From NCBI GenBank assembly GCA_963996605.1, contig CAXEIX010000001.1, positions 1-30,790 on the forward strand: a stretch of 30,790 nucleotides of DNA, given 5' to 3'. This DNA comes from an uncultured Candidatus Poseidoniales archaeon. GTDB lineage: Archaea > Thermoplasmatota > Poseidoniia > Poseidoniales > Thalassarchaeaceae. Shown one piece after another: positions 8,512 to 26,104 of the stretch. The notes below the pieces were generated by a model, which was not told where the DNA came from, did no database searches, and was given only the letters and a program-made list of their open reading frames with translations. Position numbers and translations under genes: made by a program. Numbering within the stretch: position 1 is the stretch's first letter; each line of letters opens with the position of its first letter.

Positions 8512-10830
8512 ATGTCCGGGGAAGCGAATACAGGTTTCGATATCCGTAGGCTCGCATCCAGGATAGAGTCCGGAGCGCCGAGCGCGGTCCTTTTCTCACT
8601 AGCCATTTCCGTGGTACTGGTAACTGCGGGGATAATCTACGTCCTTGTGGTCAGAGCTGCGCCTTTCTACTCTGCTTTCGGTTGCGGAGCCGATGTCTTC
8701 AGCCCCCCTGACGATTGGTCCGATTCAGTGAAAGAAGATCTATGGGATTCGGCAAACTATAGTGACGGCTCCATCATGGACCCCCTATGGCTAGACTCAA
8801 CATGCATCGTATCATACGATAACGAATCAATGATCGGGCTCGATGAGCCACTGATAGTTTTCGAAAGAGACAGAGACTCGCTGGGAAATCCACTGGAAGA
8901 TCCAGAAGGACACCTCGGTTACTCCGGTAACTGGACCGTTCATCCGAATAGGCAGTATATCTGGGCATACCTCGATGAAAATCCCGAGGACAACTACTCT
9001 GTTGCGGAAGGGGAGTCTCTGAAGGATGCCCAGATACCACTGGGGTTGATGATAGAAACAAATCCCCAGACCAATAGGGCTAACGAGGGTGCACTGATAC
9101 TCCACAAGTCGGATCCCGACCTCAAGAGAGACTGGTTCGTGATCACTTGGGCGATGAGTAACAGATCACAAGTAGACGTAGACGGGGATGGCAAACCCAA
9201 TATCGGGGTGGATGAGAGGGGTACGGACCTAGATACCGACATAGATAACGACGGATTTGACAATGATCGTGACGATGATATGGACAACGACGGGATACCA
9301 AACGCTTTCGATCCGGATGAGCGGATCCCTAATGTCGACTTTTTCGGCCTATTCCTTGGCTTATTGACCATAATTTTCGTGATTATGAATGTCTTCGCAC
9401 CTATGTGGTTGTCCAGGTTCGAGGATGAAGTCATCGACTCCACTATATCCCCATTGAACTCATTCTCAGTAGTAATTCTGACAATCTCCTCCATCGGGCT
9501 AATCTACCCGATGTCCCAATCCTTCATCTCGTACCTCCTACTAGCAACGATACTGTTGGCCATAATCCTCGCATGGTCCTCCAAGATAACACCACTCGGG
9601 TCGATTGCAGCAGCATTCGCACTACTGTGGCTTTCCATATTGCCAACCCACGCGATTCAAACAGGCCACCTGATGGCCCTAGGCCTCTCCCTTCTGCTAC
9701 TCCAAGTGACGATGTCTGATACGAGGAACCGAGTAAAACCAGACTCAACTCCCCTGGTAATTTCATTTCCGCTATGCAGAGACAGTTGGTCCCCAATTTC
9801 AGAAAGATCCTTCGGAGACAATGCATCACAGAGAGCTCGTAACATCGCCAGGTTGGGGATACTCCCATTGGCACCCTTGCTGGATTTTTCCCGCAGCCTC
9901 AGGAAATTCGCTACCCCTCGCTCGTCTTTTCTGGACAGGGACTTCAAATCTCTTCTTTGGGTAGTCGCCACAGTAGCCTTGGTTTTATCCTTCTTGGATC
10001 TCGTAGCAAGGATTGACGGGAGCATTGGGGAATTCCTGACCCAGACACTGTGGCGAACTGACATTAGGACGGTATCAATAGTCACCGTCTCAGAGAATTT
10101 GTCCATTGGCGTGAACGCACTATTGCGGACAACCCTACAAGTTGCACTTGGAGCCCTAGTGATCGCAATTCCCCTTGGCCTAGGGACTGCGATATACCTG
10201 TCCGAATATGCAGATCCAAGAACTTCAAACCTAGTTAAGCCAACCCTCGAGATCCTAGCAGGAATCCCCTCCGTCGTCTACGGCTTCTTCGCATTCGTGG
10301 TAATTTCCCCGATAGTGATGGATGTAGGCTCGCAACTTGTAGAATGGGGGTGGATGGCCGACGAGCCCCAACAGTTCAACCCTATCAACGGGGCCATAGT
10401 GGTCGGAATCATGATCACGCCTCTAATCGCCAGCCTATCGGAGGATGCACTCAGATCTGTTCCAAATAGCCTCAGAGAGGCATCATACGCTCTAGGGGCG
10501 ACTCCGGTCGAAACCACCTTCAGAGTGGTAATCCCATCAGGACTCTCGGGAATCCTTGCTTCGATTATATTGGCATTCTCCAGAGCTATCGGGGAAACAA
10601 TGGCCGTAACTATCTCCGTGGGGACAGCCGCATACTACACAAGAAACATGTTTCTGAGTTCTCAGACAATGACTGCGTACATTGCAAAGAAAATCCAGGG
10701 GGACCTTCCCGCGGGAACTTCTGCATACTACTCAATGTTCGCAGTCGGACTGTATCTGTTCATAATTACTCTAGGGTTGAATATGGTCGGCCAGAGAATA
10801 ATGCATCGCTTCAGGGAGGCATACGAATGA
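8512..10830 (+). CDS. pstC: Phosphate ABC transporter permease PstC with large N-terminal extracellular and membrane insertion
   Basis: The C-terminal ~240 aa carry PstC motifs (GTAIYLSEYA, KPTLEILAGIPSVVYGFFA, REASYALGAT, SRAIGETMAV). Total length 772 aa. Confidence 0.92.
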   Translation: MSGEANTGFDIRRLASRIESGAPSAVLFSLAISVVLVTAGIIYVLVVRAAPFYSAFGCGADVFSPPDDWSDSVKEDLWDSANYSDGSIMDPLWLDSTCIVSYDNESMIGLDEPLIVFERDRDSLGNPLEDPEGHLGYSGNWTVHPNRQYIWAYLDENPEDNYSVAEGESLKDAQIPLGLMIETNPQTNRANEGALILHKSDPDLKRDWFVITWAMSNRSQVDVDGDGKPNIGVDERGTDLDTDIDNDGFDNDRDDDMDNDGIPNAFDPDERIPNVDFFGLFLGLLTIIFVIMNVFAPMWLSRFEDEVIDSTISPLNSFSVVILTISSIGLIYPMSQSFISYLLLATILLAIILAWSSKITPLGSIAAAFALLWLSILPTHAIQTGHLMALGLSLLLLQVTMSDTRNRVKPDSTPLVISFPLCRDSWSPISERSFGDNASQRARNIARLGILPLAPLLDFSRSLRKFATPRSSFLDRDFKSLLWVVATVALVLSFLDLVARIDGSIGEFLTQTLWRTDIRTVSIVTVSENLSIGVNALLRTTLQVALGALVIAIPLGLGTAIYLSEYADPRTSNLVKPTLEILAGIPSVVYGFFAFVVISPIVMDVGSQLVEWGWMADEPQQFNPINGAIVVGIMITPLIASLSEDALRSVPNSLREASYALGATPVETTFRVVIPSGLSGILASIILAFSRAIGETMAVTISVGTAAYYTRNMFLSSQTMTAYIAKKIQGDLPAGTSAYYSMFAVGLYLFIITLGLNMVGQRIMHRFREAYE

Positions 10831-13800
10831 ATGGAGAAAACCACGGTTTCAGCCTTTTCGGGGTTAAATCGTTGCCTCAGAAGTCTCGAAAGAAAAGAGA
10901 TAGAATAGCGAATGCTGGAAAAGCAACGTTCATCCTGATTGCTCTGACCTGTGCAATCATACTATTCACAATGGTGTCTAGGATATACTCTGAAGCATAT
11001 GTCCCTTCGGAAGAAACCGAGGTTAGCGGAATAGGTGCCAATAAGCCCCTGTCCGAGACAGTAAAGTCTTGGAACGTAGAGACGTGGAACGAGGACTGGT
11101 CAGTCGACGATCCCCGAAGAGAAAGGACAAACGTCACCCTAAGGGCCGAGTGGACGGAGGTCAAGTACGAGGCTTACAACCAAAACGGGGTATTGGGAAT
11201 AACATTCGATCGATACGAAGACATCCAGAGATATCTTTGCGATGAAGGGATTATGGCGGACTCATTCGCCCCGTACGAGTCCTGGAAACCCAAGCACCTT
11301 CTCCCGGGACAAGACAGAGAACCCGCGTCGTACGATCCAATCTCTGACCAATTCTTCGACATTTTCCTTCGGGACACCCCCCCTACCGCTGGAATTGGAG
11401 ACTTCTGGATAGACTCCTCGGATGGAAACATTGCTCACATCTGGAAGGGGCTAAGGTGGGAAGAATTAGACCCACAGTCTTCGATGCTCTCCGAGATTTC
11501 CCAGAGACATCCTTACGATGAGGGGTCCCGGGATCCAATATGGTCCGATCAGAAAATCCGCGTTTACTACAGCCCAATAGAACCGCTGTTTAAGTCGTCG
11601 GGAGACATTTGGATTGTCACAGACGAGTCCGGGGACAGAATCGATTTCAGAACCTACAATTACACACTTTGGAAGGAAAACCGCTACACATCAGGTTGGG
11701 GCTGGGAAAATGGCAGCCTGGAAGAATTACCAAGCATCCTCCCCTTGCCGGAAGAACTGAATGAAGAAATCCACCCAGAATTCTGCTCAAGAGCAGAAGT
11801 GGCCGTCTTCATCCAAAGAAATGGACTCACCGGGTCTTACGAGATTTACCACATTTCCCATGATGACGGATACTCTTTCCGAGTGAAGCCGGGATCCACC
11901 AAGGCCATTCACAATGACCTGGAAATAGTCCTGTCCAATCACTGCGAAGGGTCTTTCCACAGCTCAGGGATCAGAGCAGACTTTTCTATACCTGAAGGAG
12001 ATTTCTGGTACAATATCTCTTCATTTCCTCCAAATTACGGGGGAGCGGGTCACGTAGGTGAAGGGGACTATTGGGTCGATTCCGATTCTTCCAGCAGCAA
12101 GGCATACCGTTTTGAAAACGGATCTTGGAAGGCCGACTATACGATTTCCCCGCTCATATACCCGTGCGATAGAATGACTCTAATGATTAGGGGTGACGGA
12201 GAGTTCTCGTATGGCAACATGACTCAATGGAACAAATATGGAGTCAGACAAGACTCCAGCTTCTTCTACGACCAGGAACCGAATGAAATCCAAACAATCA
12301 CCCTTCATCCTGCCCAGATAGGCCAATCAGGCTTGGGATCATTGTGGTTGGAGCACACAATGAATTACACCGTAACCTTCACTCAATTAGAAGGCCCTCC
12401 ATCCGATGCCAGGGACGGCTCATACAAGGAGGTCGACGACTTCATCCTCGGTCCGATGGGCGATTGGCTGAACTCTAGAATCTTCAATGACGGGGACCAG
12501 GATAACGACGGAATTTACGATGTCTGTGATGGTGACATAGACGGGGACAACAGCAAGAACCCAATAATGGGCGGAGACCAAGGCGACCCCGAGTCATTGG
12601 AAAGGGCCCTGAGCCAATGTCCCCAAGCCGTGCCTATGGTCCTAGAAGATGGCCAGATCAACGAAGAATGGATGATCGACACAAATTCTGATGGAGTCCA
12701 TGACGACACCGAGGACGATGACATAGACGGGGACGGGGTGAAGAACCTAGTCGATGGCCAAGGACACAATCTAGCATCACTAACAGATAGCGCAAGATGG
12801 GGGTGGCCCGAAGAGGGAATGACATCCTCGGAGGCGATTGAATTCTACCAATCACTCGACCCATCCTCTCCGGACAAAGGCCTAGAGTCCCTGATAGGGA
12901 TCTGGGAGGACGCCAGAGACTCCGAAGAAAGGATGTGCGATGAGTCATACAAGAACAAGTTCCCATCACTTGCAAAGGATGACTGTAGACGCTCTACAGA
13001 GTTCAACGCTAACCCCCCAATGGATGCAGACGAGTGGTGCGAAGGGGCAATGACGCTATTGCAACCAAGAGTCTGGTCTTCCTACTGCGGCATCTCGACA
13101 TCTTTAGAGACGGGTATCGATGAATATCAGGATCCCTTTCCGCTGGAAGAGATATTTGCATACGCGTTGCTCATTGCAGCCTTCTTGCTGATGCTTTTCC
13201 CCGGGGTGGTGGTCCTCCCTGCAAGCAACTTCCTGAGGAGGTTCGATGGCGATATTATAGAGACAAATCCCACGTGGTCCAGAATAGTCTACCTGTCAGA
13301 ACTCATAGGGCGCCTAGTCTCACTTGCTATGAGATCAATATTGCTGATCGTCGGTGCTTTCATTCTGTCACAAACACTGGCATCGCCGATAGCAATCATG
13401 ATCTTCGTATTCACCATCGGAATCTCACTAACATTGATGTCAGGGCTGGCCGTATTAACCTCAATATCATCAATCATCAAACTCAGGCCAGAAGATGGAG
13501 TTAGGCCGTCCGAAGGGGCGGTAGAGGGGACCTTCCTCCTTCTAACATTGATTACATGGTTAGTTGTAGCTGATTGGGTCATCGATCGCGGAATCCTGTC
13601 CGGGTCAATCTGCCTACTCCTAGCACTGTCTGCAACAAAAAGGATGGCTGCCGGTGCATCGCAACTGACTCGAAGCCAGAATATCAACTCCGACAGGGTC
13701 AAGAGGGTTGTGATGGGCAGAGACGGTTGGATAATCGTTGCCTCAGTCTTCCTCATCGTGGGCTTCTTTACTATCCCATTCGAGGTAGTCAACTCCTTCA

Positions 13801-14681
13801 TTTTCTCAAATTTCCCCTCACAGCAACCATACCGGGCGGGATTGAGGGCCGCTTTCTGGGGGAGCGTGTACGTTGTGGGTTACACAATGATATTCGCCAT
13901 CCCCGTTTCCATAGGGGGGGCAATCTGGCTGGAAGAGTACGCTCCAAGGGGGAAACTTCAGTCCGGGATACAGACCCTGATAACCAACCTAGCCGGAGTC
14001 CCTGCCGTAGTCTTCGGTTTGTTCGGCCTTGCACTATGCTCCTCAGATCGAGGATTCGGAATGGGCCTAGGGGGGACCATCCTCACCGCGGGAGTGACAA
14101 TGGCGACAATGGCAATGCCAACCATAGTTATTGCAAGCCAAGAGGCACTCCGAGCAGTCCCTCCATCATTGAGAGAGGGAGCATTCGGAATCGGTTGCAC
14201 GAAGTGGCAAGTGGTCAAGGACCACGTCCTCCCACACTCAATGCCGGGAATGATGACTGGCACCATACTTGCAATGTCCAGAATTATGGGCGAGGCAGCA
14301 CCTCTGATACTAGTAGGTGCGGTGACCTCAGTCTTCCAGGAACCAGACCCGCTCTACTACGTAGACTATACCTGGCTCCCCACCATCGATGGATTCTTCC
14401 AATGGGTGCCGGGCTTGGAGTCTAGGGTATCAGAGATGCCTATGTGGGCAGATAGGCCAATCATGACTGCAGACCCAACTTCTTTCACAACCTGGGGTTC
14501 GAACCCCGGTGGAAAATACACCGTCCTACCGGTCCAGGTATACACTTGGACCGATCAGCCAGAGGAGGGATTCAAGGTCGCGGCCGCAGGTGCATCACTG
14601 GTGCTTTTGGGAACGTTGGTCATGGTCAACTCCGTGGCAATCCTCGTCAGGGCGCACTTCAGGAGATTCTCACAGGCTTAA
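10827..14681 (+). CDS. pstA: Phosphate ABC transporter permease PstA with ~730 aa extracellular insertion
   Basis: ATGA overlap with pstC. The C-terminal part has PstA motifs (AIWLEEYA, NLAGVPAVVFGLFG, SLREGAFGIGCTKWQVV, SRIMGEAAPL, TVLPVQVYTW). Total length 1284 aa. Confidence 0.92.
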   Translation: MNGENHGFSLFGVKSLPQKSRKKRDRIANAGKATFILIALTCAIILFTMVSRIYSEAYVPSEETEVSGIGANKPLSETVKSWNVETWNEDWSVDDPRRERTNVTLRAEWTEVKYEAYNQNGVLGITFDRYEDIQRYLCDEGIMADSFAPYESWKPKHLLPGQDREPASYDPISDQFFDIFLRDTPPTAGIGDFWIDSSDGNIAHIWKGLRWEELDPQSSMLSEISQRHPYDEGSRDPIWSDQKIRVYYSPIEPLFKSSGDIWIVTDESGDRIDFRTYNYTLWKENRYTSGWGWENGSLEELPSILPLPEELNEEIHPEFCSRAEVAVFIQRNGLTGSYEIYHISHDDGYSFRVKPGSTKAIHNDLEIVLSNHCEGSFHSSGIRADFSIPEGDFWYNISSFPPNYGGAGHVGEGDYWVDSDSSSSKAYRFENGSWKADYTISPLIYPCDRMTLMIRGDGEFSYGNMTQWNKYGVRQDSSFFYDQEPNEIQTITLHPAQIGQSGLGSLWLEHTMNYTVTFTQLEGPPSDARDGSYKEVDDFILGPMGDWLNSRIFNDGDQDNDGIYDVCDGDIDGDNSKNPIMGGDQGDPESLERALSQCPQAVPMVLEDGQINEEWMIDTNSDGVHDDTEDDDIDGDGVKNLVDGQGHNLASLTDSARWGWPEEGMTSSEAIEFYQSLDPSSPDKGLESLIGIWEDARDSEERMCDESYKNKFPSLAKDDCRRSTEFNANPPMDADEWCEGAMTLLQPRVWSSYCGISTSLETGIDEYQDPFPLEEIFAYALLIAAFLLMLFPGVVVLPASNFLRRFDGDIIETNPTWSRIVYLSELIGRLVSLAMRSILLIVGAFILSQTLASPIAIMIFVFTIGISLTLMSGLAVLTSISSIIKLRPEDGVRPSEGAVEGTFLLLTLITWLVVADWVIDRGILSGSICLLLALSATKRMAAGASQLTRSQNINSDRVKRVVMGRDGWIIVASVFLIVGFFTIPFEVVNSFIFSNFPSQQPYRAGLRAAFWGSVYVVGYTMIFAIPVSIGGAIWLEEYAPRGKLQSGIQTLITNLAGVPAVVFGLFGLALCSSDRGFGMGLGGTILTAGVTMATMAMPTIVIASQEALRAVPPSLREGAFGIGCTKWQVVKDHVLPHSMPGMMTGTILAMSRIMGEAAPLILVGAVTSVFQEPDPLYYVDYTWLPTIDGFFQWVPGLESRVSEMPMWADRPIMTADPTSFTTWGSNPGGKYTVLPVQVYTWTDQPEEGFKVAAAGASLVLLGTLVMVNSVAILVRAHFRRFSQA

Positions 14682-14693
14682 GGGGGAAAAATA

Positions 14694-15803
14694 ATGAAAA
14701 AAGAAAACGCAAAGAAGGAGAAAATCAGGACATCCGTCCTGGAAAAACTGAGGGAGATTATGGAATCAGACGGCGAAGTCAGCGATGAGGAGCAAGTCAG
14801 ATTCGATAGTATGGAGAGGACACTGAACGACTTATCCAGAGAACCATCGAGGAGCGAAGTCAGACTGATGCTCACCTCGATGTCCAAGGTAGACGGAGTG
14901 GCAGATTTCGCAGAGTCAGCAATCATCAAGAAATTCATGGAGTCGCTCCCTGAGGAGCCGCCGAAGGACAATGAAGGTGAGAAAGGGGATCTTCCGGATA
15001 ACATCAATCCGGACACACTCCAATCAACCAGGGAACTCCACATAGATGGCGAGGCGCAAATAGAAGTCAAGGATCTTAACCTAAGATATGGCTCAGCACA
15101 AGCTCTATTCGACGTCTCAATCCCAATAGAGAAAAACTCCGTAACCTCTCTAATCGGACCATCAGGTTGTGGGAAGTCTACATTGCTCAGATGTCTGAAT
15201 AGAATGAATGACCTAATCCCCATCTGCAACTTTGACGGTAGCATCGTTTACGATGGCGATGACATCAACAAGTCAGGCACCGACCTTGTAAGGCTAAGGA
15301 GAAAGATAGGGATGGTGTTCCAGAAGCCCAACCCATTCCCCAAATCAGTATTCGACAACGTATCATACGGGGTTCAATTACACTACAACCCCTCAAGGAG
15401 GAAGATGAACGAGATAGTCGAGAAGTCGCTCACCAGTGCCGCTCTTTGGGGAGAGGTTTCGGACCGCCTGCATGAACTAGGGACCAGCCTTTCAGGAGGC
15501 CAGCAGCAGAGGCTCTGCATAGCCAGGACCATCGCGGTCGAGCCAGACGTAATTCTGATGGACGAGCCATGCTCCGCGCTAGACCCCATAGCCACGGCCA
15601 AGATAGAGGACTTGATTACGCAGCTGAAGGAGCACTTCACAGTGGTCATTGTCACTCACTCAATGTCCCAGGCAATGCGAGTCTCGGATTACACCGCATT
15701 CATGTTCCTTGGCAGATTGATAGAGTTCGACAAGACGGAGAAGATCTTCAACAACCCGGGCAATGAGCTGACAGACCGATACATCTCGGGAAGGTTTGGC
15801 TGA
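14694..15803 (+). CDS. pstB: Phosphate ABC transporter ATPase PstB with ~120 aa N-terminal extension
   Basis: Walker [10 protein letters not shown], PstB-typical [10 protein letters not shown] and [12 protein letters not shown], signature [13 protein letters not shown], Walker [14 protein letters not shown]-terminal YISGRFG. Confidence 0.96.
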
Positions 15804-15897
15804 ATCGTGATTCGAGCACTCGGAAAGAACTCCAAAACCCCGACAAATTAGTTATATAAAATATATAGTTTACATAATAACTATAACCTGTACTGCG

Positions 15898-16396: not shown

Positions 16397-16522
16397 GTCG
16401 GGGCAGTGTTTCCACTGGCCATAGAATATGGTAATTTTGAAACCTCTTGATTACTATTGTTCAATCTTAGATTATTTGGAAACTGGATATTCAGTGCTAT
16501 CTACGCAGGGCTTTTGAGTACT

Positions 16523-18523
16523 ATGAAAAAAGCAGGTATGAACAAGGCTGGAGCAATGACGCTCCTAATGATGATTGCAGCTCTAGCGGGCTGCGTAGGC
16601 GGAGAAACGGATGTCGATTTCGACCAGGCTCTGGTGGATCTTCAACCCGCATCGAGCAACGATTGCGAGGACGGGGGGACATGGGTCCATATCGGACTGG
16701 ACGCAAATAAGAACGGTAATCTCGATACATCCGAGATAACCGAATCGGTCGCAGTATGCAACGGCCAAGACGGAGATCCCGGGTCCCAAGGGGCACAAGG
16801 GCCCCAGGGAATCAGGGGTACTTCCGGAGAGGATGGTACTGACGGGGCAAACGGCGACTCAGGACTGCCCGGACAAGATGGCGAACAGGGGGCCACTGGG
16901 AACACCGGAAGCATGGGTCCAGTAGGACCTACCGGGGAAACCGGACCTGTAGGGCCCGCTGGGATGGACTTCGTCCACTGCCTTGCAGGGGATGGAGCAG
17001 CGTCTGTCAATGCCATGGTGGAATACTGCCCAGATAGCACGACTATCCTCGCTCAAGGCTCTTCTTACGCATGGTCGCTTGTAGGGAGCTTCCAATCAGC
17101 GCCACTTGGTTGCGACATGGGGGAGGACGAGTGCGAGGGGTACGCGGAGGTACCAGCCTACGACGCAGCGTCACAAAGGGCCTTCGTTGTCAATGCAGAA
17201 GACAGCTCGGTCGACATCATCGACATGAGCACTCCTAGTGATCCAACTCTGCATTTCAGACTAGTAATATCCAATGGAGAACCAAACAGCGTTGCCGTCA
17301 GCCCTAACGGACTAGTCGGCGTGGCCGTTGCGGTCGACCCAAAGCAAGACAACGGTCTCGCAATGTTCTTCGATACCGATGGGGCCCTCGTAGGCTCGGT
17401 CACTGCTGGCGCACTGCCAGACATGATCACCTTCACGAACGACGGAACCAAGGCTCTGATCGCCAATGAGGGAGAGCCAGACGATGACTACGACATCGAT
17501 CCAGTCGGCTCGGTTACAGTGGTGGATGTTTCGGATACCACAAGCCTGACAGCCACACAGGTTGGATTCACGTCCTTCAATTCGCAGATGGCTACTCTAG
17601 AGGCTAGCGGAGTCAGGATATTCGGGCCCGGTGCCACAGTGGCTCAGGACCTGGAGCCCGAGTACATCGCAGTTGCGGGCGACGACTCGACCGCCACAAT
17701 CGTGATGCAGGAGAACAACGCTGTCGCCACTCTCGACCTATCGACCAACACCATAACAGGCATCCACGCTCTTGGGTTCAAGGATTACTCCACACTGTCG
17801 CTTGACCTAAGTGACAGGGACGGGGGGGTCAACTTCCAGAGCTGGGACAACGTCAAGGGAATGTACCAGCCCGATGCAATGACCTCATTCGTAGCTAGTG
17901 ACGGGGTCACCTACTATGTCTCTGCCAACGAGGGAGATGCAAGGGATTACGATGGATACTCCGAAGAGGAGAGAGCCGATGACCTAACTCTAGATGCGAC
18001 ATCCTTCCCTGAAGGCGTTTCAGATGCCGATCTCGGTCGATTGAAGACGACCACTGCCGATGACTGTGGGGACACAGATGGCGATGGAGACGTGGACTTC
18101 ATCTGCAGCTACGGCGCCAGGTCTTTCTCGATATGGAAGTATGACAGCTCCGGAGACTTCGTTCAAGTCTGGGACAGTGGCGATGAGGTCGAGCACCTCA
18201 TGTCGGTAAACGGGCAATGGATTAACGGGTACACCGGTTCCAGGAATGACGACAAGGGCTCCGAGCCAGAGGGTGTAATCACTGGAGATTTCTTGGGTAG
18301 AACCCTAGCATTCGTAGCCCTGGAGAGATCAGGCGGAGTGATGATTTACGACCTCACTGATCCAGCCTCGCCGTTCTTCGTCCAGTATGTGTACATGCAC
18401 GATCACGTCTCGCCAGAGGCAATGGCATTCGTATCAGGGGCAGATAGCCCCAACGGAGCACCAATGCTGATCGTGGCAAACGAGGTCAGCGGTACGGTTG
18501 CCGTATTGCAACCAATGGTCTGA
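16523..18523 (+). CDS. Secreted lipoprotein with collagen-like stalk and choice-of-anchor-I (alkaline-phosphatase-associated) beta-propeller domain
   Basis: Lipobox-like ALAGCVGG. Domain motifs ANEGEP, LEPEYIAV, MYQPDA, ANEGDARDY, GARSFSIW, RNDDKGSEPEG, LERSGGVMIYD, SPEA and ANEVSGT. Start taken at ATG 16523 (the ORF track starts at 16457). Confidence 0.8.
   Translation: MKKAGMNKAGAMTLLMMIAALAGCVGGETDVDFDQALVDLQPASSNDCEDGGTWVHIGLDANKNGNLDTSEITESVAVCNGQDGDPGSQGAQGPQGIRGTSGEDGTDGANGDSGLPGQDGEQGATGNTGSMGPVGPTGETGPVGPAGMDFVHCLAGDGAASVNAMVEYCPDSTTILAQGSSYAWSLVGSFQSAPLGCDMGEDECEGYAEVPAYDAASQRAFVVNAEDSSVDIIDMSTPSDPTLHFRLVISNGEPNSVAVSPNGLVGVAVAVDPKQDNGLAMFFDTDGALVGSVTAGALPDMITFTNDGTKALIANEGEPDDDYDIDPVGSVTVVDVSDTTSLTATQVGFTSFNSQMATLEASGVRIFGPGATVAQDLEPEYIAVAGDDSTATIVMQENNAVATLDLSTNTITGIHALGFKDYSTLSLDLSDRDGGVNFQSWDNVKGMYQPDAMTSFVASDGVTYYVSANEGDARDYDGYSEEERADDLTLDATSFPEGVSDADLGRLKTTTADDCGDTDGDGDVDFICSYGARSFSIWKYDSSGDFVQVWDSGDEVEHLMSVNGQWINGYTGSRNDDKGSEPEGVITGDFLGRTLAFVALERSGGVMIYDLTDPASPFFVQYVYMHDHVSPEAMAFVSGADSPNGAPMLIVANEVSGTVAVLQPMV
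16763..16969 (+). repeat. Collagen-like Gly-X-Y repeat, 23 uninterrupted triplets
   Basis: GQD GDP GSQ GAQ GPQ ... GPV GPA GMD, counted from the translation. Confidence 0.9.
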
Positions 18524-18620: not shown

Positions 18621-19349
18621 ATGGAAATCCTCCTATTGGCTTTCATAGGGACCTTTTTCGCAGCAGCGCTGACTGTTCCTGCTGGATTCGGCCTCTCAAC
18701 AATGCTGACTCCAATCGTACTTCTGATCATGGGCCCACATGAAGCAGTGGCAGTAGTTGCGGTCGTCCATGCGGCTCACAATGCTGGCAAATTCATCGCC
18801 CTGAGGGATAGCGTGGACTTCTCGGCATTCAGGCGCTATGGGATATGGCTGGTATTCGGCTCTATCGCTGGAGCGCTGCTGCAGAACCGCGTTCAACAGG
18901 AACCGCTATTGGCTCTAATCGGGGCCTTCCTGATAATCCTCCCAATATTGACCCTCAGCGAGTCATGGACTGGGTACAGGATTCCCGAGGCCAATGACAG
19001 GTTCGGCGGCCTCGGATCAGGATTCATGGGGGGTCTTTCAGGACACCAGGGTGCACTAAGGGCGATGTTTCTGACACGTCGTTTGCCAGACAAGATGTCC
19101 TATGCAGCCACTGCGAGCGTTCTAGCCCTCTGCGTCGATCTCTCAAGGGTCCCAGTTTACATCCTCTCTCGGCCCGAAGAAATCTACCAGCACCTACAGC
19201 TGACTGCGGTAATGGTGATTTCCGCGCTGATAGGGGTCAGGGCAGGAAAGAAGTGGCTAGAGTCACTGAAAAGCGCATGGGTCAATAAAATGGTAATGTC
19301 GGGAATAATTGCCAGCGGCGTATTCTATATCTACATGGCACTTTACTGA
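18621..19349 (+). CDS. TauE/SafE (TSUP) family anion permease
   Basis: 242 aa, hydrophobic, two-fold internal repeat with GFGLSTMLTP and GFMGGLSGHQGALRAMFL. Confidence 0.82.
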   Translation: MEILLLAFIGTFFAAALTVPAGFGLSTMLTPIVLLIMGPHEAVAVVAVVHAAHNAGKFIALRDSVDFSAFRRYGIWLVFGSIAGALLQNRVQQEPLLALIGAFLIILPILTLSESWTGYRIPEANDRFGGLGSGFMGGLSGHQGALRAMFLTRRLPDKMSYAATASVLALCVDLSRVPVYILSRPEEIYQHLQLTAVMVISALIGVRAGKKWLESLKSAWVNKMVMSGIIASGVFYIYMALY

Positions 19350-19437
19350 TTTTGAGAGTCCCCTGGATATACCACAGAGTAATACGCACAAGTCTGCTCC
19401 GCTGCTTGCTCGCTAGATTTCAATTGGAGGTTTTTTG

Positions 19438-20175
19438 ATGGTTCAGAATGGGATTTTGATTGCTGTCGAGGGCATGGACGGATCCGGGAAGAGCACGCAA
19501 GCAAAGCTGCTGTACCACTGGCTCAGGGCCAAGGGGCTCCCGGTCTTCCACACCGAGTGGAACTCGAGCAAGATAGTCAAGCAAGCGACCAAGATAGGGA
19601 AGAATACCCATAGGCTCCTGCCAATCACGTTCCACATGATACATGCCGCAGACTTCGCAGACAGGTGGGCACAGCAGATAGAACCGGTCTTGGAGATAGG
19701 CGGGATAGTGATTTGTGACCGCTACAAGTATACGGCCATGGCGAGGGACGGTTCAAGGGATGTCCCCCGAGAGGTCATCGAGGACACATACTCATTCGCG
19801 AGGGAGCCAGACCTGACCCTGTACTTCGACGTCCCAGTGGATGTCAGCTTCGATCGCATCGCCAAGGGCCGACCGAGGCTGAAGTTCTACGAAGCCGGGA
19901 TGGACATGGGGTGGACGACCGACCCGTTCGAGTCCTACAGGATCTTCCAAGGCAAGGTCTCGGAGATCTACTCGGGACTCGTGGACGAGGGAAGGATCGT
20001 ACGCCTCGATGCCGAGGGAACCGTGGCGGAGGTCCAGTCCAGGGTTAGGGAGGCCTTCGACAAGCACATCGACCTCTCTGAGGTACAGGTCATCGACCAA
20101 TCGGATAGGCTAGCACAGAATCTCAGCGAGTCCGACATCGACTGGCTAACGTACTCGGGGGGTGAGGGGGAATGA
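19438..20175 (+). CDS. Thymidylate-kinase-fold P-loop kinase, putative catalytic subunit of a heteromeric polyphosphate kinase
   Basis: Intact Walker A EGMDGSGKST and DRY. TEWNSS replaces the TREPG motif and there is no AYQG motif. SD GGAGG at 19426-19430. Confidence 0.75.
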   Translation: MVQNGILIAVEGMDGSGKSTQAKLLYHWLRAKGLPVFHTEWNSSKIVKQATKIGKNTHRLLPITFHMIHAADFADRWAQQIEPVLEIGGIVICDRYKYTAMARDGSRDVPREVIEDTYSFAREPDLTLYFDVPVDVSFDRIAKGRPRLKFYEAGMDMGWTTDPFESYRIFQGKVSEIYSGLVDEGRIVRLDAEGTVAEVQSRVREAFDKHIDLSEVQVIDQSDRLAQNLSESDIDWLTYSGGEGE

Positions 20176-20846
20176 GCCACGCGGGCAAGCTGATAGTAAT
20201 CGAGGGCCCGGACCACGTAGGAAGAACCCTACACGTGCGCCTCCTATCTGCCAGGTTGAAGGCGAACGGAATCGCAACCCACATCATAGGGCTGGCCCGT
20301 TCCGAACTGATGGGCGAGATTGTCAAGTCAAGAACCGCTGACATCCACCAGCTGAACTGGCGAACCAGGTCGCTCCTGTACGCCACCGACCTGCACGACC
20401 AGATCAAGCACGAGGCAGAACCGCTGCTGGATGCCGGATTCGTGGTCATCGCTGACCGGTACACACTCACTCCGAGGATCAGGGAGCAGGTGAGGGGCGG
20501 GGATGGTGATTGGATCGACTCGCTATACTCCAATACCCCCGATCCCGATGCCATGATCGTACTCCACGCAGGGCCTCGCCGACTGTTGAACCGAATCATG
20601 TTCGGAGAGAGCCTGGAGGCGCTGAACCACTTCGAAGCAGGCATGGACCTCGCACTCTCCTCGTCCATCACCTCTTCCTTCCTGCAGTACCAGAAGATCC
20701 TCAGGCAGGAGTTCCAGGATGCTGGGAAGACAGCAGGCGCCACCCTGATTCCGACTAGACACACCGTCCAAGACGTCCATGACAGGATATGGGACTCGGT
20801 ATACCCAGTCGTGGAGCACATGCTACAGCCGATAGATGGGAACTAG
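20172..20846 (+). CDS. Thymidylate-kinase-fold paralogue with degenerate P-loop, putative regulatory subunit
   Basis: EGPDHVGRT replaces GxxxxGKS/T. It shares DRY and F/YEAGMD with the upstream gene, and has an ATGA overlap with it. Confidence 0.72.
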   Translation: MSHAGKLIVIEGPDHVGRTLHVRLLSARLKANGIATHIIGLARSELMGEIVKSRTADIHQLNWRTRSLLYATDLHDQIKHEAEPLLDAGFVVIADRYTLTPRIREQVRGGDGDWIDSLYSNTPDPDAMIVLHAGPRRLLNRIMFGESLEALNHFEAGMDLALSSSITSSFLQYQKILRQEFQDAGKTAGATLIPTRHTVQDVHDRIWDSVYPVVEHMLQPIDGN

Positions 20847-22291
20847 CCCAGTATATCCGCCACAACATCCGGTTGGGTGAGGTAGGCGAAGAGGCCTATT
20901 CCAGCGAACATCATCATCCAAGAGCCCGTGGCCTTCACGATAGACGAGTGCCTCCTGAGGGAGTCGATCAGAGCCCCCCTGCCCATCCCGACCATGGCAG
21001 TCACCCCAATCATCAGTAGCGATACGGAAATCATCAGCCCGCCCATGCCCATCACAAGTGCGCCCTCGCCGACAACCGCCAGCCATGCCACGAACGGGAA
21101 GACCGCAGCCGCGGTGCAGTCCACCGAAGCAGCGCTGTAGCCGATCCCCCACAGGTACATGTTCCTCCTGGGGGTGAAGCGCTCGTCATCCTCCGTGGTC
21201 ATGTGCCTGTCAAGCAGGCCTTGGACCCGTGACAGCACGTGGGATGTCCACCCCATGAGCATCAGCGCGCCGAGCACCACCAGCAGGAGGGCGATCCCCA
21301 CTGCAATGTCATGAAGTATGCCAGAAAGGTTCAGCACACCATCCAGGCCGAAGATCACGACTCCCACGCAGCCGAAGAATGTCAGTTGCCCCAGAGCCGC
21401 GAAAGTCCCCACCTCAAGGGCACCAGGCGCTGCACCCTCCAGCTTCCCAGCCTCTCGGAGCTCGTCCTCCCTCACCCCGAGGCTGAGGCAGTAGCTGATG
21501 TAGGATGGCAGGACGGGGAACGCGCAGGGTGAGAAGTAGACAAGTACGCCAAGGAAGAGACCGATGAAGAAGACCCCGGAGAATGACCTGTCCGCCTTCT
21601 CGATGCCGAACCGAAGGCTCTCTGCGTCTCCCTCGAGCGCCCTATCTACGGCTCTGTCGAATGATGACCACCCGTCAAGTGGCGTCCCAGTCCCCTCCTT
21701 AGCCACCACGTAACCCTCGTGGTCTATCACGTACACGATTGGTAGGTTCTGAGCGGCATAGTGCTCAACCAGGTCCCCCCTTCCTCCGTCCTCGAGGATG
21801 ATCGAGTCAGTGGCGCCGTTCGCCACCGGCCAACGCATGTGCTTGTCGGCATCGGAGTCCCCGAACGTCTCGTTGATCCAGTCGAACGACTCGTAGCCGT
21901 ACCAAGATGCGATTGACAATGCCACGACGGGATACTCGGAACCGGACTCATGCCAAGAGTCCAGGCTGCCCTCTATGTGCCCCTGTACGTAGTGGCAGTT
22001 CGCGCAGTCGACGGCCATGAAGTCTAGGATGACCACGCTCCCCCTCAGGTCGGAGAGCTTCACCATCCCTGCATCGTCCGCAATCGAGTCGTCAATCCCC
22101 GTCCTGTTCATGGTCATCACCTCGAAGTCAGGAACAATCTCGGCGTCATCGGATACTCCGTAAAGCGAAGACGAGACTCCGAAAATCGCCAGCGATGCAT
22201 AGGCAATAATGCAGAAAAGGACGATGCCTATTCCGAAGGCCTTCCAGGTGTCCTGCTCGCGCAAAACCCCCATATCGATGCCCTCTGCCAT
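20843..22291 (-). CDS. Thioredoxin-like (CxxC) domain fused to a CcdA/DsbD-type membrane domain
   Basis: N-terminal TM helix, then VVILDFMAVDCANCH, then FSPCAFPVLPSY and DCTAAAVFP with several TM helices. Start moved to MAEGID at 22291 because the longer ORF runs into tRNA-Val. Confidence 0.8.
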   Translation of the reverse strand: MAEGIDMGVLREQDTWKAFGIGIVLFCIIAYASLAIFGVSSSLYGVSDDAEIVPDFEVMTMNRTGIDDSIADDAGMVKLSDLRGSVVILDFMAVDCANCHYVQGHIEGSLDSWHESGSEYPVVALSIASWYGYESFDWINETFGDSDADKHMRWPVANGATDSIILEDGGRGDLVEHYAAQNLPIVYVIDHEGYVVAKEGTGTPLDGWSSFDRAVDRALEGDAESLRFGIEKADRSFSGVFFIGLFLGVLVYFSPCAFPVLPSYISYCLSLGVREDELREAGKLEGAAPGALEVGTFAALGQLTFFGCVGVVIFGLDGVLNLSGILHDIAVGIALLLVVLGALMLMGWTSHVLSRVQGLLDRHMTTEDDERFTPRRNMYLWGIGYSAASVDCTAAAVFPFVAWLAVVGEGALVMGMGGLMISVSLLMIGVTAMVGMGRGALIDSLRRHSSIVKATGSWMMMFAGIGLFAYLTQPDVVADILG

Positions 22292-22386
22292 GGGTTTCCG
22301 AGCCCTCTGCCACTTTTGACTCCGGCGGGGACCTGATGCCGGCCTGTCACCAATCTTATGCGCAGGAGATTGCTGGCAAACAGGCC

Positions 22387-22462
22387 GGGCTCGTGGTCTA
22401 GGGGTTATGACGTCGCCTTCACATGGCGAAGATCGCAGGTTCAATTCCTGCCGAGCCCACCA
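22387..22462 (+). tRNA. tRNA-Val (anticodon CAC), CCA encoded
   Basis: Acceptor GGGCTCG/CGAGCCC, anticodon arm TCGCC-TTCACAT-GGCGA, T arm GCAGG-TTCAATT-CCTGC, 3' ACCA. Confidence 0.97.
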
Positions 22463-23172
22463 TCAACCAAATCCTGTATCAGGGAAGATGCCCCTATTCG
22501 CATGCGTCCCTTACCGGTGATGGAACCGTCCCTCCCCTCCACTATGGAGATCAGCCTCTCGGCATCCTCCCTCTTCGAGATCCCGCCCGATACCTTGACC
22601 CCCGGACTCCCTTCGAATGAGAGGCAGTGCCTGCTGACCTCCTCCGCCATTATGGCAGCGGCCTCGTCGCTGCATTCCCCCCTCTTGCCCGTGCAAGACT
22701 TGACGAAGTCTGCCCCGGCTGCCAGGGCCATCCTGGTAACCGCCCTCAAACGCCTCTCATCTAGCAACGGGGCCTCTAGTATGACCTTCAGGATCAGCCC
22801 CTGTGACGCCTCCCTCATGGCAATGAGCTTGGCTAGCTCGGATTGCCCCGGGAACGAGGGGTCGTCATTCGGCTCCAAAACGCAGTCTACCTCATCGGCA
22901 CCCTTCGATGCAGCCTCGCTGACCGCATCGAATATCTCGTCGGGGGAGTCGCTGCCTAGTGGGAACCCGCCTGCAACCAGGGCCAGCGAAACCACTGGGT
23001 CGATCCGCCGCTTGACGAACCCGGCGTGCTCGGGGAAAACGCAGACCGCTGCCGTCCGATGCCTGCTGGCGAGATCACAGAGCCCAGCAAGCTCCTCCTC
23101 GCTGGCGCCCGAGTCAAGCAGGGTCAGGTCCAGCAGGTCGAGGATCTTCCTCGCTCCCATCGAGCCACTCAT
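22441..23172 (-). CDS. deoC: Deoxyribose-phosphate aldolase
   Basis: LDLTLL, AAVCVFP, GFPLG, GADEVDCV, LKVILE, GADFVKSCTGK, GVKVSGGI, RIGASSL. The start overlaps the serC stop (ATGA). Confidence 0.9.
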   Translation of the reverse strand: MSGSMGARKILDLLDLTLLDSGASEEELAGLCDLASRHRTAAVCVFPEHAGFVKRRIDPVVSLALVAGGFPLGSDSPDEIFDAVSEAASKGADEVDCVLEPNDDPSFPGQSELAKLIAMREASQGLILKVILEAPLLDERRLRAVTRMALAAGADFVKSCTGKRGECSDEAAAIMAEEVSRHCLSFEGSPGVKVSGGISKREDAERLISIVEGRDGSITGKGRMRIGASSLIQDLVDGGLGRN

Positions 23173-24266
23173 CCGTGACGACTCTCGAATTCGGCCATGA
23201 AAGAGGCTAGAGCCTCCACGCTCTCCACCGGGCACCCGTTGTACAGGCTCGCCCTGATGCCGCCAACGCTCCTGTGGCCCTTCAGGCCTCCCATCCCGCT
23301 GTCCATCGCTTCAGAGAGGAACACATCCTCGAGGCCCTCGTCGGCTAGCCTCCATGTGACGTTCATCATCGATCTGGAACCGACTTCGGCATGCGGCCTC
23401 CAGAAGTCACTACCGTCCAGCATGTCGTAGATGAGTCCTGACTTCTTCTGGTTCCTCCGGATGGCTCCATCCAAGCCGCCGTTCCTCTCGACCCAGGATA
23501 GGACCTTGTCCAGTACGAAGATGCCGTATGTGTTGGGGGTGTTGAACATCGATCCCTTGGAGATGTGGGTCTGGTAGTCCAGCATGGTCGGAAGCCCCTC
23601 CTTGCCCCTGCTGGCAGCCCATGGCGAGAGGATGACGACCGTCACCCCGCTCGGCCCCAGGTTCTTCTGGGCGCCAGCGTAGATCAGGTCATGCTTGGAA
23701 ACGTCGAGGTGCGCACCGCATATGTCCGAGCTGGCATCGACCACCCTGGGCTTCCCGTTGCTATCGGGCAGGTGGTTGAACTGGGTCCCGAAGAGTGTGT
23801 TGTTGGAGGTGTAGTGGAGGTACTCGGCATCATCTCGCACAGAGTAGTCCCCGTCACCGGGGACCGACTTGAAGCCGTTGCTGGAGTCGTCCCAAGCAGC
23901 TGCGCCGTCCCCGATCCTATTCGCCTCTGCAAGTGCCTTCTTCGCCCAGATCCCCGTCACGAGGAAGTCAGCAGCGCCACCATTGCTCAGGAGGTTCAGC
24001 GCAGTCATGTAGAACTGGGTAGATGCCCCTCCCTGCAGGAACAGCACCTCGTAGTCATCGGGGACCGAGAGGAGCCTCCTCATCCTGCCCATGGCAGAGT
24101 CAATTACTTCCTGGAATGCAGGGCTTCGATGCGAGACCTCCATCAAACCAAAGCCACTGCCGTTCATATTGGGCAGGGATTCGGCAACCTCGGTCACCAC
24201 TTCGAGGGGGAGTACGGCGGGGCCAGCCCCGAAGTTGTGAATGCGACTCTCGCCCCCCACGTTCAC
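23169..24266 (-). CDS. serC: Phosphoserine aminotransferase
   Basis: HNFGAGPAVLP, EVSHRS, FLQGGASTQF, YAGAQKNLGPSG (PLP lysine), NTPNT, GHRSVGGIRASLYN. GTG start at 24266 or 24260. Confidence 0.95.
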   Translation of the reverse strand: MNVGGESRIHNFGAGPAVLPLEVVTEVAESLPNMNGSGFGLMEVSHRSPAFQEVIDSAMGRMRRLLSVPDDYEVLFLQGGASTQFYMTALNLLSNGGAADFLVTGIWAKKALAEANRIGDGAAAWDDSSNGFKSVPGDGDYSVRDDAEYLHYTSNNTLFGTQFNHLPDSNGKPRVVDASSDICGAHLDVSKHDLIYAGAQKNLGPSGVTVVILSPWAASRGKEGLPTMLDYQTHISKGSMFNTPNTYGIFVLDKVLSWVERNGGLDGAIRRNQKKSGLIYDMLDGSDFWRPHAEVGSRSMMNVTWRLADEGLEDVFLSEAMDSGMGGLKGHRSVGGIRASLYNGCPVESVEALASFMAEFESRHG

Positions 24267-24340
24267 ACGGGGCCACAGACGGTCTTTCAGCCCATCGGAG
24301 AAGCAACAGGGTTCATTTCTCGTTGTCAAGCCGGCGGTTT

Positions 24341-24949
24341 GTGCTACGCATAGGTCTGGTAATGCTCCAGGGGGCCCGACACTCCCACATTTCCGCTCTA
24401 GAGAGGGCATCAATGGAGACTGGCATCGACATCGAGGTCCACGAACTGAGGAAGGCCTCCGACCTAGAGTCATCCGAACCGAATGCAATCGTGATGCCGG
24501 GGGGCGAGTCTACAACGATGAGGCTAACTGGCAATGACGCGATTTCCCCCTTGCTCCCCGCTGTCTTCGAGTGGATAAGGGCGGATCAGACGCGACCGGT
24601 CCTGGGCACCTGTGCGGGAGCGATACTCCTCGCAGATCCGGGAGACGGGGGAGGCTCACTGGTCGACGCTTCAGTGGAGAGGAACGGCTTCGGCTCCCAG
24701 GCCGAATCATTCCAAGCCGAGATCGATGCCATAGCGCTCGATCGCGAGTTCCCCGGCGTCTTCATCCGAGCACCACGCTTCGTCGAGATGGGAGATGATG
24801 CCCAGATCGTCGCGAGACTCGGGGATGAGGTGGTAGGGGTCATGACTCAGAACCGCATGGCACTCACATTCCATCCGGAACTGTCACAGGACCCCGGATT
24901 CCATGAATGGCTTCTGGAGACTGCAGCCAAGCAAGGGGCGGGGGCATAG
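24341..24949 (+). CDS. pdxT: Pyridoxal 5'-phosphate synthase glutaminase subunit
   Basis: IGLVMLQGA, MPGGESTT, LGTCAGAILL, RNGFGSQAESF, GVFIRAP, TFHPEL. GTG start at 24341 inferred. Confidence 0.93.
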   Translation: MLRIGLVMLQGARHSHISALERASMETGIDIEVHELRKASDLESSEPNAIVMPGGESTTMRLTGNDAISPLLPAVFEWIRADQTRPVLGTCAGAILLADPGDGGGSLVDASVERNGFGSQAESFQAEIDAIALDREFPGVFIRAPRFVEMGDDAQIVARLGDEVVGVMTQNRMALTFHPELSQDPGFHEWLLETAAKQGAGA

Positions 24950-26104
24950 ATGCTCTCACTGCCCCAGTTCCCCGATCTGGCCGAAGCGCCAGACCTCTCC
25001 GACACGGAGGGCTGCATCCAGTGCCAGATGGGCAGCAAACTCGTCCTGTTCATCACTGGGAACTGCCATTGGCAGTGCGACTACTGCCCCCTCTCCGAGA
25101 CCCGTCGAGACATCGACTGGATGTTTGCAAACGAGAGGAGGTGCGAGACTTTCGACGAGGTGATCGAGGAGGCACGCGCAATGAGGGCCACGGGGGCTGG
25201 CATCACTGGAGGCGACCCACTGATGGCGAAGGAAAGAACCCTGGAGGGCATTTCCCGACTGAAGGAAGAGTTTGGATCAGAATTCCACCTCCACATGTAC
25301 ACCAGCATCCCCTTCAGGCCGGAAGTGGCCAGCGACTTCGCTGACGCTGGGCTGGACGAGATCAGATTCCATTTGCTCGACCTTGATGCAGAGAGGTACC
25401 GCTCGACGATCTCTGCGTGCGCAGAGGCGGGCATCCTCACAGGGGTGGAGATTCCCTGCGAGCCGGACAAGAGGGACGAACTCCTCTCACTACTAGATGA
25501 GCTGAGGGATTTCGACATCTCATTCCTGAACCTAAACGAGCTCGAAATCACGGTAGGCAACCACGACAACATGGAACTGAGGGGCTTCAACCTCTCAACC
25601 GAGATCACCGCGGGAGCCGCTGGCTCGAACGAGCTGGCACATGAAATGAAGTCCAGGGTGATGGCAGCAGATCAGGGCGTAGCCGATCCCACGGACGGAG
25701 CCACACGCGAACCATTCGGATTCCATCTGAAGTTCTGCACTGCCGTCTTCAAGGACTCCGGACAGATGAGGAGGCGCTTCCTGAGAAGGGGGGAGTCAAC
25801 CATCGCCCCCCACGAGGTACTGACCGAGGACGGGACGCTAATCTTCGGGGCCATTGATGCAGATGCCGAATCCAAGGAAGACTGGATGGATGAAATCGTC
25901 AATGAGACCGGGCTGCCTCGGAGATTCCTCCTCTGGGACGATAAGAATGGCCGCATCGAGATGCCCCTGGTAATAGCAGAGGACATAGCAGAGCAGATAG
26001 AAGAACCCGTCTTCATGGTCGAGGTCCTGCCTACTCACGAGAGGCTAGAGGTCACCATGGTCCTCCTAAACGGGACCGAGGACAATGAGGCTGATTCCGA
26101 ATGA
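24950..26104 (+). CDS. Radical SAM protein of a conserved archaeal uncharacterised family
   Basis: GCIQCQMGSKLVLFITGNCHWQCDYCP (CxxxCxxC plus an upstream CxxC), GITGGDP, GLDEIRFH, FLNLNELE. Confidence 0.88.
   Translation: MLSLPQFPDLAEAPDLSDTEGCIQCQMGSKLVLFITGNCHWQCDYCPLSETRRDIDWMFANERRCETFDEVIEEARAMRATGAGITGGDPLMAKERTLEGISRLKEEFGSEFHLHMYTSIPFRPEVASDFADAGLDEIRFHLLDLDAERYRSTISACAEAGILTGVEIPCEPDKRDELLSLLDELRDFDISFLNLNELEITVGNHDNMELRGFNLSTEITAGAAGSNELAHEMKSRVMAADQGVADPTDGATREPFGFHLKFCTAVFKDSGQMRRRFLRRGESTIAPHEVLTEDGTLIFGAIDADAESKEDWMDEIVNETGLPRRFLLWDDKNGRIEMPLVIAEDIAEQIEEPVFMVEVLPTHERLEVTMVLLNGTEDNEADSE

Follow-up and report, generated by a model that had tools for sequence, protein, structure and literature searches.

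A putative family-3 polyphosphate kinase encoded by a coupled gene pair near phosphate-uptake genes of a marine Thalassarchaeaceae archaeon

The proteins Saci_2019 (cPPK3) and Saci_2020 (rPPK3) of Sulfolobus acidocaldarius form a heteromeric polyphosphate kinase of family 3 (PPK3; PMC12995831, J Biol Chem 2026). The catalytic subunit Saci_2019 produces polyphosphate (polyP) from ATP and, more readily, ATP from polyP and ADP. Saci_2020 alone is inactive, giving traces of ADP only, and stimulates Saci_2019 in an α2β2 complex; its inactivity was attributed to loss of the arginine of the DRX motif. A basic polyP cleft is conserved in cPPK3 and not in rPPK3, and the dTMP-binding residues are not conserved. 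Phosphorylation of dTMP is carried out only by a third paralog, Saci_0893, with no dTDP formed by Saci_2019 in 31P-NMR. ST1543 (STK_15430; PDB 2plr and 5h70) is a homolog of cPPK3, and genes for PPX, SixA, CHAD and PstS/PstC proteins are typical of PPK3 neighborhoods. The distribution of the family was called narrow, covering Sulfolobaceae, Nitrososphaeraceae and a few bacteria; the Nitrososphaerales are placed within PPK3, and neither version of the paper mentions Poseidoniales, Thermoplasmatota or Verrucomicrobiota (PMC12995831). Here we describe two adjacent genes, ORF A and ORF B, on a stretch of 30,790 nucleotides (the window; contig CAXEIX010000001.1) from an uncultured Thalassarchaeaceae archaeon of the Poseidoniales, which belong to marine group II (MGII). 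ORF A and ORF B are likely to be the catalytic and the partner subunit of a PPK3. The MGII archaea are abundant and uncultured, and to our knowledge their phosphorus economy is known from genomes only.

ORF A and ORF B are translationally coupled paralogs, as stated in a preliminary description of the window: the start codon of the second gene overlaps the stop codon of the first, and the proteins share 26% sequence identity (E 6e-19). Both match the Pfam family PF02223 (Thymidylate_kin), with E-values of 1.3e-25 for ORF A and 1.8e-14 for ORF B. Among proteins of known structure, ORF A is closest to ST1543 (E 9e-48, as compared to 1e-13 for the best true dTMP kinase), and the same holds for ORF B (7.5e-19 versus 2e-5). 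Single-chain AlphaFold2 models reached pLDDT values of 90.4 (ORF A) and 91.4 (ORF B), with only the last ca. 33 residues of ORF A poorly modelled. In Foldseek searches the top match of both models was again ST1543 (5h70/2plr), above all true dTMP kinases, with TM-scores of 0.91 for ORF A and 0.85-0.89 for ORF B. For sequence comparison we used a Sulfolobaceae-type reference locus (L006) with the gene order SixA-PPX-c-r, in which c and r denote the catalytic and partner genes and of which the c protein matches ST1543 with an E-value of 5e-91. ORF A shares 40% identity with this c protein (E 9e-47) and ORF B 30% with the r protein (E 7e-22). Both genes are under purifying selection, with dN/dS ratios against the nearest relative of 0.046 (ORF A) and 0.094 (ORF B).

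In BLAST searches ORF B matched c and r proteins equally well, at E 7e-22, so its assignment required a phylogenetic tree and an approximately unbiased (AU) test. A careful IQ-TREE analysis (LG+C20, PMSF) was done with 74 domain sequences, of which 34 are from first genes and 33 from second genes; the others are the second half of a fused Alicyclobacillaceae protein and, as the root, six canonical Tmk proteins from the genome of the window and five other pair-carrying genomes. The phylogeny, which the preliminary description had proposed as a check, separates three groups. ORF A falls in the c clade together with the Sulfolobaceae-type cPPK3 (support 100/95), ORF B in the r clade with the Sulfolobaceae-type rPPK3 (96/94), and both lie apart from the canonical Tmk clade (100/99). 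The MGII catalytic and MGII partner sequences are each monophyletic (100/100), on long stems of 1.23 and 1.96. The outgroup has only six sequences, its branches and those of the Sulfolobaceae are long, and support for the deeper position of the MGII clades is weak. A separate duplication within MGII that gave rise to the pair was rejected: enforcing a single MGII clade of c and r costs 44.6 log-likelihood units (p-AU 0.0096).

The fused Alicyclobacillaceae protein (P0228, 460 amino acids) is a PPK3 in which c and r are joined in one chain. With support of 89/87, this protein is the closest sister to the MGII catalytic clade. The second half, in which His-Tyr occupies the position of the Walker A Lys/Arg-Ser, clusters with the partner subunits.

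Public records label both genes of the pair as dTMP kinase, a name that the preliminary description had held to be wrong. If the label were right, the pair would be ordinary nucleotide monophosphate kinases, serving as an additional dTMP kinase or acting on another (d)NMP. Both proteins do pass PF02223, ORF A exceeds the NCBIfam equivalog cut-off for dTMP kinase (TIGR00041; 88.6 versus 83.25 bits), and ST1543 itself was deposited as a dTMP kinase. The public mis-annotation follows from this score of ORF A just above the cut-off. Canonical Tmk proteins (TIGR00041, for example Saci_0893 and E. coli Tmk) share with the pair the P-loop kinase fold, the lid, the DRX motif and the Pfam family. However, the dTMP-site motifs are replaced in the pair. 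In ORF A the Walker A motif (GMDGSGKS) is intact and DRY is present, with TEWNSS and YTAMARD at the positions of the canonical dTMP-binding motifs, in agreement with what had been read from the sequence before. The lid is longer than in canonical Tmk and contains EAGMD, which, as also noted earlier, is common to ORF A and ORF B. Moreover, a third gene with the Tmk fold is present in the same genome on contig C145 (L001:2-490, minus strand). The contig end truncates this gene, which among PDB entries matches true dTMP kinases best. This is the separate tmk whose presence had been suggested as a test; the five other pair-carrying genomes tested likewise each contain the pair and one canonical tmk. 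Taken with the separation of both ORFs from canonical Tmk in the tree and the lack of dTMP kinase activity in the ortholog Saci_2019 (PMC12995831), these findings make a role as nucleotide monophosphate kinases highly improbable, and assignment to PPK3 corrects a systematic error in the databases.

The canonical Tmk of MGII has a feature of its own. In two loci (L092:1465-2850 and L093:691-2076) it is encoded in an open frame of 462 amino acids, of which ca. 270 C-terminal residues have no Pfam match; the frame may represent a fusion. The copy in the genome of the window ends at the contig edge before this C-terminal part.

The conservation of the pair was analyzed by scanning species-representative genomes with an alignment of seven sequences. 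This gave at least 575 matching stretches, of which 80 loci were analyzed; they span Poseidoniales, Nitrososphaerales, soil Thermoplasmata, Verrucomicrobiota, Acidobacteriota, Chloroflexota, Bacillota and others. The arrangement seen in 78 of these loci is a gene with the Walker A lysine and DR[YF] and, directly after it, a paralog with a Walker A arginine and DR[YF]. Of the remaining two, L041 has a frameshifted c gene, and L076 is on a contig that ends after the c gene. The range of the PPK3 family is thus much wider than the literature states. The residues invariant in the 34 c sequences, all of which ORF A has, are K18, W41-N42-S43-S44, K55, R76, R95 (of DRY), R103, R107, R140, R145, K149 and R204, with R140, R145 and K149 located in the lid; E40 occurs in 91% of the c sequences. 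Five of the c-specific basic residues are replaced in ORF B (K55 to T, R76 to Q, R145 to E, K149 to N and R204 to W), and these five are replaced in most r sequences too. Overall, six basic residues and the E-W-N-S-S motif are conserved in c but lost in r, a pattern that ORF A and ORF B follow. Judged from the alignment, the residue pattern of ORF A and ORF B matches the published basic polyP cleft of cPPK3 that is absent in rPPK3.

In locus L041 (4851-5742; MGII metagenome-assembled genome, isolate SP208) the catalytic gene lies in two frames and the partner gene is intact, which reflects either a frameshift or an assembly error.

ORF B had been described as having a degenerate P-loop. The sequence concerned, GPDHVGRT, was confirmed, with arginine in place of the Walker A lysine, whereas degeneration was not: since arginine is conserved at this position across partners, the P-loop of ORF B is a signature of the family rather than a product of decay. 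Arginine is the only form in the 107 members of the ORF B family wherever the motif is readable, and ORF B carries further marks of the partner clade, namely R18 itself (97% of partners across phyla), G40, R43 and Q77. DRY is retained in ORF B. In the 80 loci DR[YF] is kept in 79 of 79 partner genes, including those of Nitrososphaerales, and DGY is found only in the Sulfolobaceae-type locus, of which the r protein has the Walker A arginine (G-A-G-R-T) and DGY replacing DRY. Loss of the DRX arginine is thus specific to a lineage and does not define the family. Across the sequences compared, the family-wide mark of the partner is the Walker A Lys-to-Arg replacement, which ORF B has, and the published explanation of rPPK3 inactivity by DRX loss fits the Sulfolobaceae-type locus only.

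These observations bear on the possibility that ORF B works as a second, active kinase subunit or as a sensor that binds ATP or ADP; the heteromer would then contain two functional nucleotide sites. In ORF B, as in 97% of the partners, both the DRY arginine and the glycines and Ser/Thr of Walker A are present, and the lysine position is occupied by another basic residue, arginine. The DRX arginine is lost only in the Sulfolobaceae partner, which is the one assayed as inactive. However, in P-loop NTPases a Lys-to-Arg change in Walker A usually abolishes phosphoryl transfer, and the five c-specific basic residues that lie outside the P-loop are missing from ORF B. The trace of ADP given by Saci_2020 (PMC12995831) points in the same direction, and we regard two working nucleotide sites as rather unlikely.

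For a PPK3 composed of ORF A and ORF B, the following mode of action can be proposed. ORF A would bind ATP or ADP via its intact P-loop and the DRY clamp, and K55, R76, R145, K149 and R204 probably line the polyP site. ORF B, with the fold kept, arginine for the Walker A lysine and the c-specific basic residues missing, would be non-catalytic and, by analogy with Saci_2020, may activate ORF A through a hetero-oligomer. The activity predicted from orthology is the reversible reaction polyP(n) + ADP <-> polyP(n-1) + ATP, which would run toward ATP at low energy charge and toward polyP only at a high ATP/ADP ratio. Phosphate imported by the Pst transporter encoded in the window could then be stored as polyP at high ATP/ADP and given back as ATP under shortage of energy or phosphate. 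Given that no exopolyphosphatase was found, release from polyP would occur via nucleotides and not by hydrolysis. With PhoU-Pst genes beside the pair and no ppx found in the order, a probable role of the pair is to connect the uptake of phosphate with a store of polyP. This would provide part of MGII with a candidate polyphosphate kinase beside phosphate-uptake genes; a literature search on marine group II and polyphosphate returned nothing relevant on polyP enzymes of MGII.

The genome to which the window belongs is a metagenome-assembled genome of 1.32 Mb in 301 contigs, 85% complete. Close homologs of the pair are named Candidatus Thalassarchaeaceae, Poseidoniaceae or Poseidonia, and the nearest locus, with 93% identity, is that of Marine Group II euryarchaeote MED-G35. 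The genome also contains a class I PPK2 (TIGR03707, 369.6 bits; L005:1465-2280). The c gene was found in 29 of 151 sampled Poseidoniales genomes and in 10 of 22 genera, including seven of the eight other genomes of the same genus, whereas PPK2 occurs in 26 and PPK1 in a single one of the 151. The pair and PPK2 are found together in 16 genomes, the pair only in 13 and PPK2 only in 10. The high-scoring class I type of PPK2 is present in 16 genomes, 15 of which have the pair; these genomes are related, so the pattern is not a statistical test. In 13 of the 29 pair-carrying genomes neither PPK1 nor PPK2 was detected, which leaves the pair as sole polyP kinase candidate. The preliminary description had proposed that the archaeon can make or use polyP. 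Orthology to PPK3 supports this capacity, which, with a class I PPK2 present, would not depend on the pair alone.

Several findings weigh against assignment of the pair as a PPK3. The only characterized PPK3 is ca. 40% identical and comes from a thermoacidophile. Replacement of the DRX arginine, a published criterion for rPPK3, is not seen in ORF B, so that inactivity of ORF B is a presumption only, and the MGII partner subunits are on a long branch. The class I PPK2 means that a PPK3 is not needed to explain the use of polyP. Furthermore, no PPK1, Ppx-GppA, CHAD or CYTH/TTM triphosphatase was detected in the 85%-complete genome, and Ppx-GppA was found in none of the 151 sampled Poseidoniales genomes; with the usual partners ppx, CHAD and TTM not found, the polyP context is thinner than in Sulfolobus. 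Finally, pstB ends 3.6 kb upstream of the pair, with two genes between.

A drift of the MGII pair away from polyP kinase activity would accommodate part of this. The pair could act with the PhoU-type regulator as a nucleotide-sensing module of the Pho regulon, or phosphorylate another acceptor. Such a change would agree with the missing ppx, CHAD and TTM genes, with the long MGII stems in the c and r clades and with the position of a PhoU-type gene directly upstream of the pair in several Thalassarchaeaceae genomes, while PPK2 could cover polyP use. Yet ORF A keeps every residue that is invariant in catalytic subunits across phyla, the architecture and coupling of the pair are unchanged, and purifying selection is strong. 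In addition, no PPK2 was detected in the 13 genomes that have the pair as sole candidate. We therefore consider a drifted function improbable and the PPK3 assignment preferable.

The pstSCAB genes and a PhoU-type regulator gene lie upstream of the pair in the same co-oriented cluster (Table 1). In five other Thalassarchaeaceae-type loci (L009-L012 and L041) a PhoU-type gene lies at most ca. 0.8 kb upstream of the pair; it is directly upstream in L010-L012 and L041, and separated from the pair by an inverted TauE gene in L009. A SixA-like gene immediately precedes the pair in one other Poseidoniales locus, and in Poseidonia pst genes are located 2.5 kb downstream. Many loci outside MGII have ppx directly adjoining the pair, often with sixA or pst, which fits the neighborhood criterion for PPK3 (PMC12995831).

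Table 1. The gene pair and neighboring features of the window.
Feature	Position	Strand	Remarks
AbrB/MazE-PhoU phosphate-regulator gene	3718-4764	+	Pfam PF01895 and PF04014
pstS-pstC-pstA-pstB phosphate ABC transporter (giant pstS, pstC, pstA)	4916-15803	+	PBP_like_2, BPD_transp_1 (twice), ABC_tran
Secreted choice-of-anchor-I/collagen-repeat protein	16457-18523	+	Pfam PF22494, PF01391
TauE/SafE-type anion permease	18621-19349	+	Pfam PF01925
GGAGG, Shine-Dalgarno-like	19426-19430	+	7 nt 5' of the ORF A ATG; read from the sequence
ORF A, cPPK3-type catalytic subunit (putative)	19438-20175	+	245 amino acids; ATG start at 19438
ATGA, ORF B start overlapping ORF A stop (translational coupling)	20172-20175	+	Read from the sequence
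ORF B, rPPK3-type partner subunit (putative)	20172-20846	+	224 amino acids

A candidate Pho box was found in the pst cluster. The 10-mer AAAATATATA, with at most one mismatch, occurs seven times as compared to 0.35 expected, and all occurrences are intergenic within the cluster, at 3685-3694, 4858-4878, 8467-8476 and 15858-15871. No copy is present between 15871 and ORF A, so the motif gives no support for co-regulation of the pair with pst. Scans for sigma-70 promoters and terminators around the pair gave results at chance level, with models that are not applicable to archaea.

Similar to Saci_2019 and Saci_2020, the MGII genes are adjacent, co-directed paralogs of the Tmk fold in the order c-r, with the canonical tmk elsewhere in the genome. 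ORF A is ca. 40-42% identical to Sulfolobaceae cPPK3 proteins, and arginine occupies the Walker A lysine position of both partners. The PPK3 precedent from Sulfolobus, which the preliminary description had named, agrees with the published account (PMC12995831). Unlike the Sulfolobaceae partner with its DGY, ORF B keeps the DRX arginine, and the operon in the window lacks ppx, sixA and CHAD genes, its neighbors being PhoU-Pst, the TauE permease and the surface protein. The MGII host is a mesophilic, planktonic euryarchaeon of marine waters in which a class I PPK2 co-occurs, and its ORF A has an acidic C-terminal tail. This tail of ca. 33 residues (213-245, window 20074-20172) was modelled with low confidence and has a possible helix at 224-238. 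Tails of similar length are present in other MGII copies, and none was seen in the Sulfolobaceae-type cPPK3 proteins compared or in ST1543.

The pairs from Nitrososphaerales, soil Thermoplasmata, Verrucomicrobiota and Acidobacteriota (L017-L088) resemble the MGII pair in consisting of a K-type and an R-type gene, both with DRY, and their c proteins are 48-54% identical to ORF A. In contrast to MGII, where the pairs form clades of their own, most of these have ppx directly beside them, often with sixA or pst. A more distant analogy is offered by the two-domain class II PPK2 PA3455, in which an active unit is combined with an inactive paralogous unit that promotes oligomerization (PMC12995831). 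However, that enzyme belongs to another family (PF03976), has the two units fused rather than encoded by two genes, and phosphorylates AMP. As PPK3 is a published family, what is added here is its occurrence in a marine lineage, the ppx-free PhoU-Pst setting and the corrected mark of the partner subunit.

A further, doubtful proposal, to which we give a modest chance, is that in most PPK3 enzymes, that of ORF B included, the partner, with its Walker A arginine and intact DRY clamp, is no dead scaffold but binds nucleotide as a sensor and thereby makes the direction of the reaction depend on ATP/ADP, and that in MGII the PPK3 and the class I PPK2 would run, under PhoU/Pst control, a polyP store without exopolyphosphatase. 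If this were true, abundant planktonic archaea would be unrecognized players in the cycling of polyphosphate in the ocean.

The two genes of the pair differ in their divergence from the MED-G35 locus. Synonymous divergence between window positions 19438-20846 and L009:5001-6409 is 0.89 for ORF A and 0.13 for ORF B. In blastn comparison two stretches of the window, 19445-25172 and 2672-3497, are collinear with L009, which lacks the 12-kb pst block and has TauE in inverted orientation. The contrast in divergence and the broken collinearity suggest that a boundary of recombination or rearrangement lies at the pair, with a variable 'phosphate island' between a PAP2 gene and the pair.

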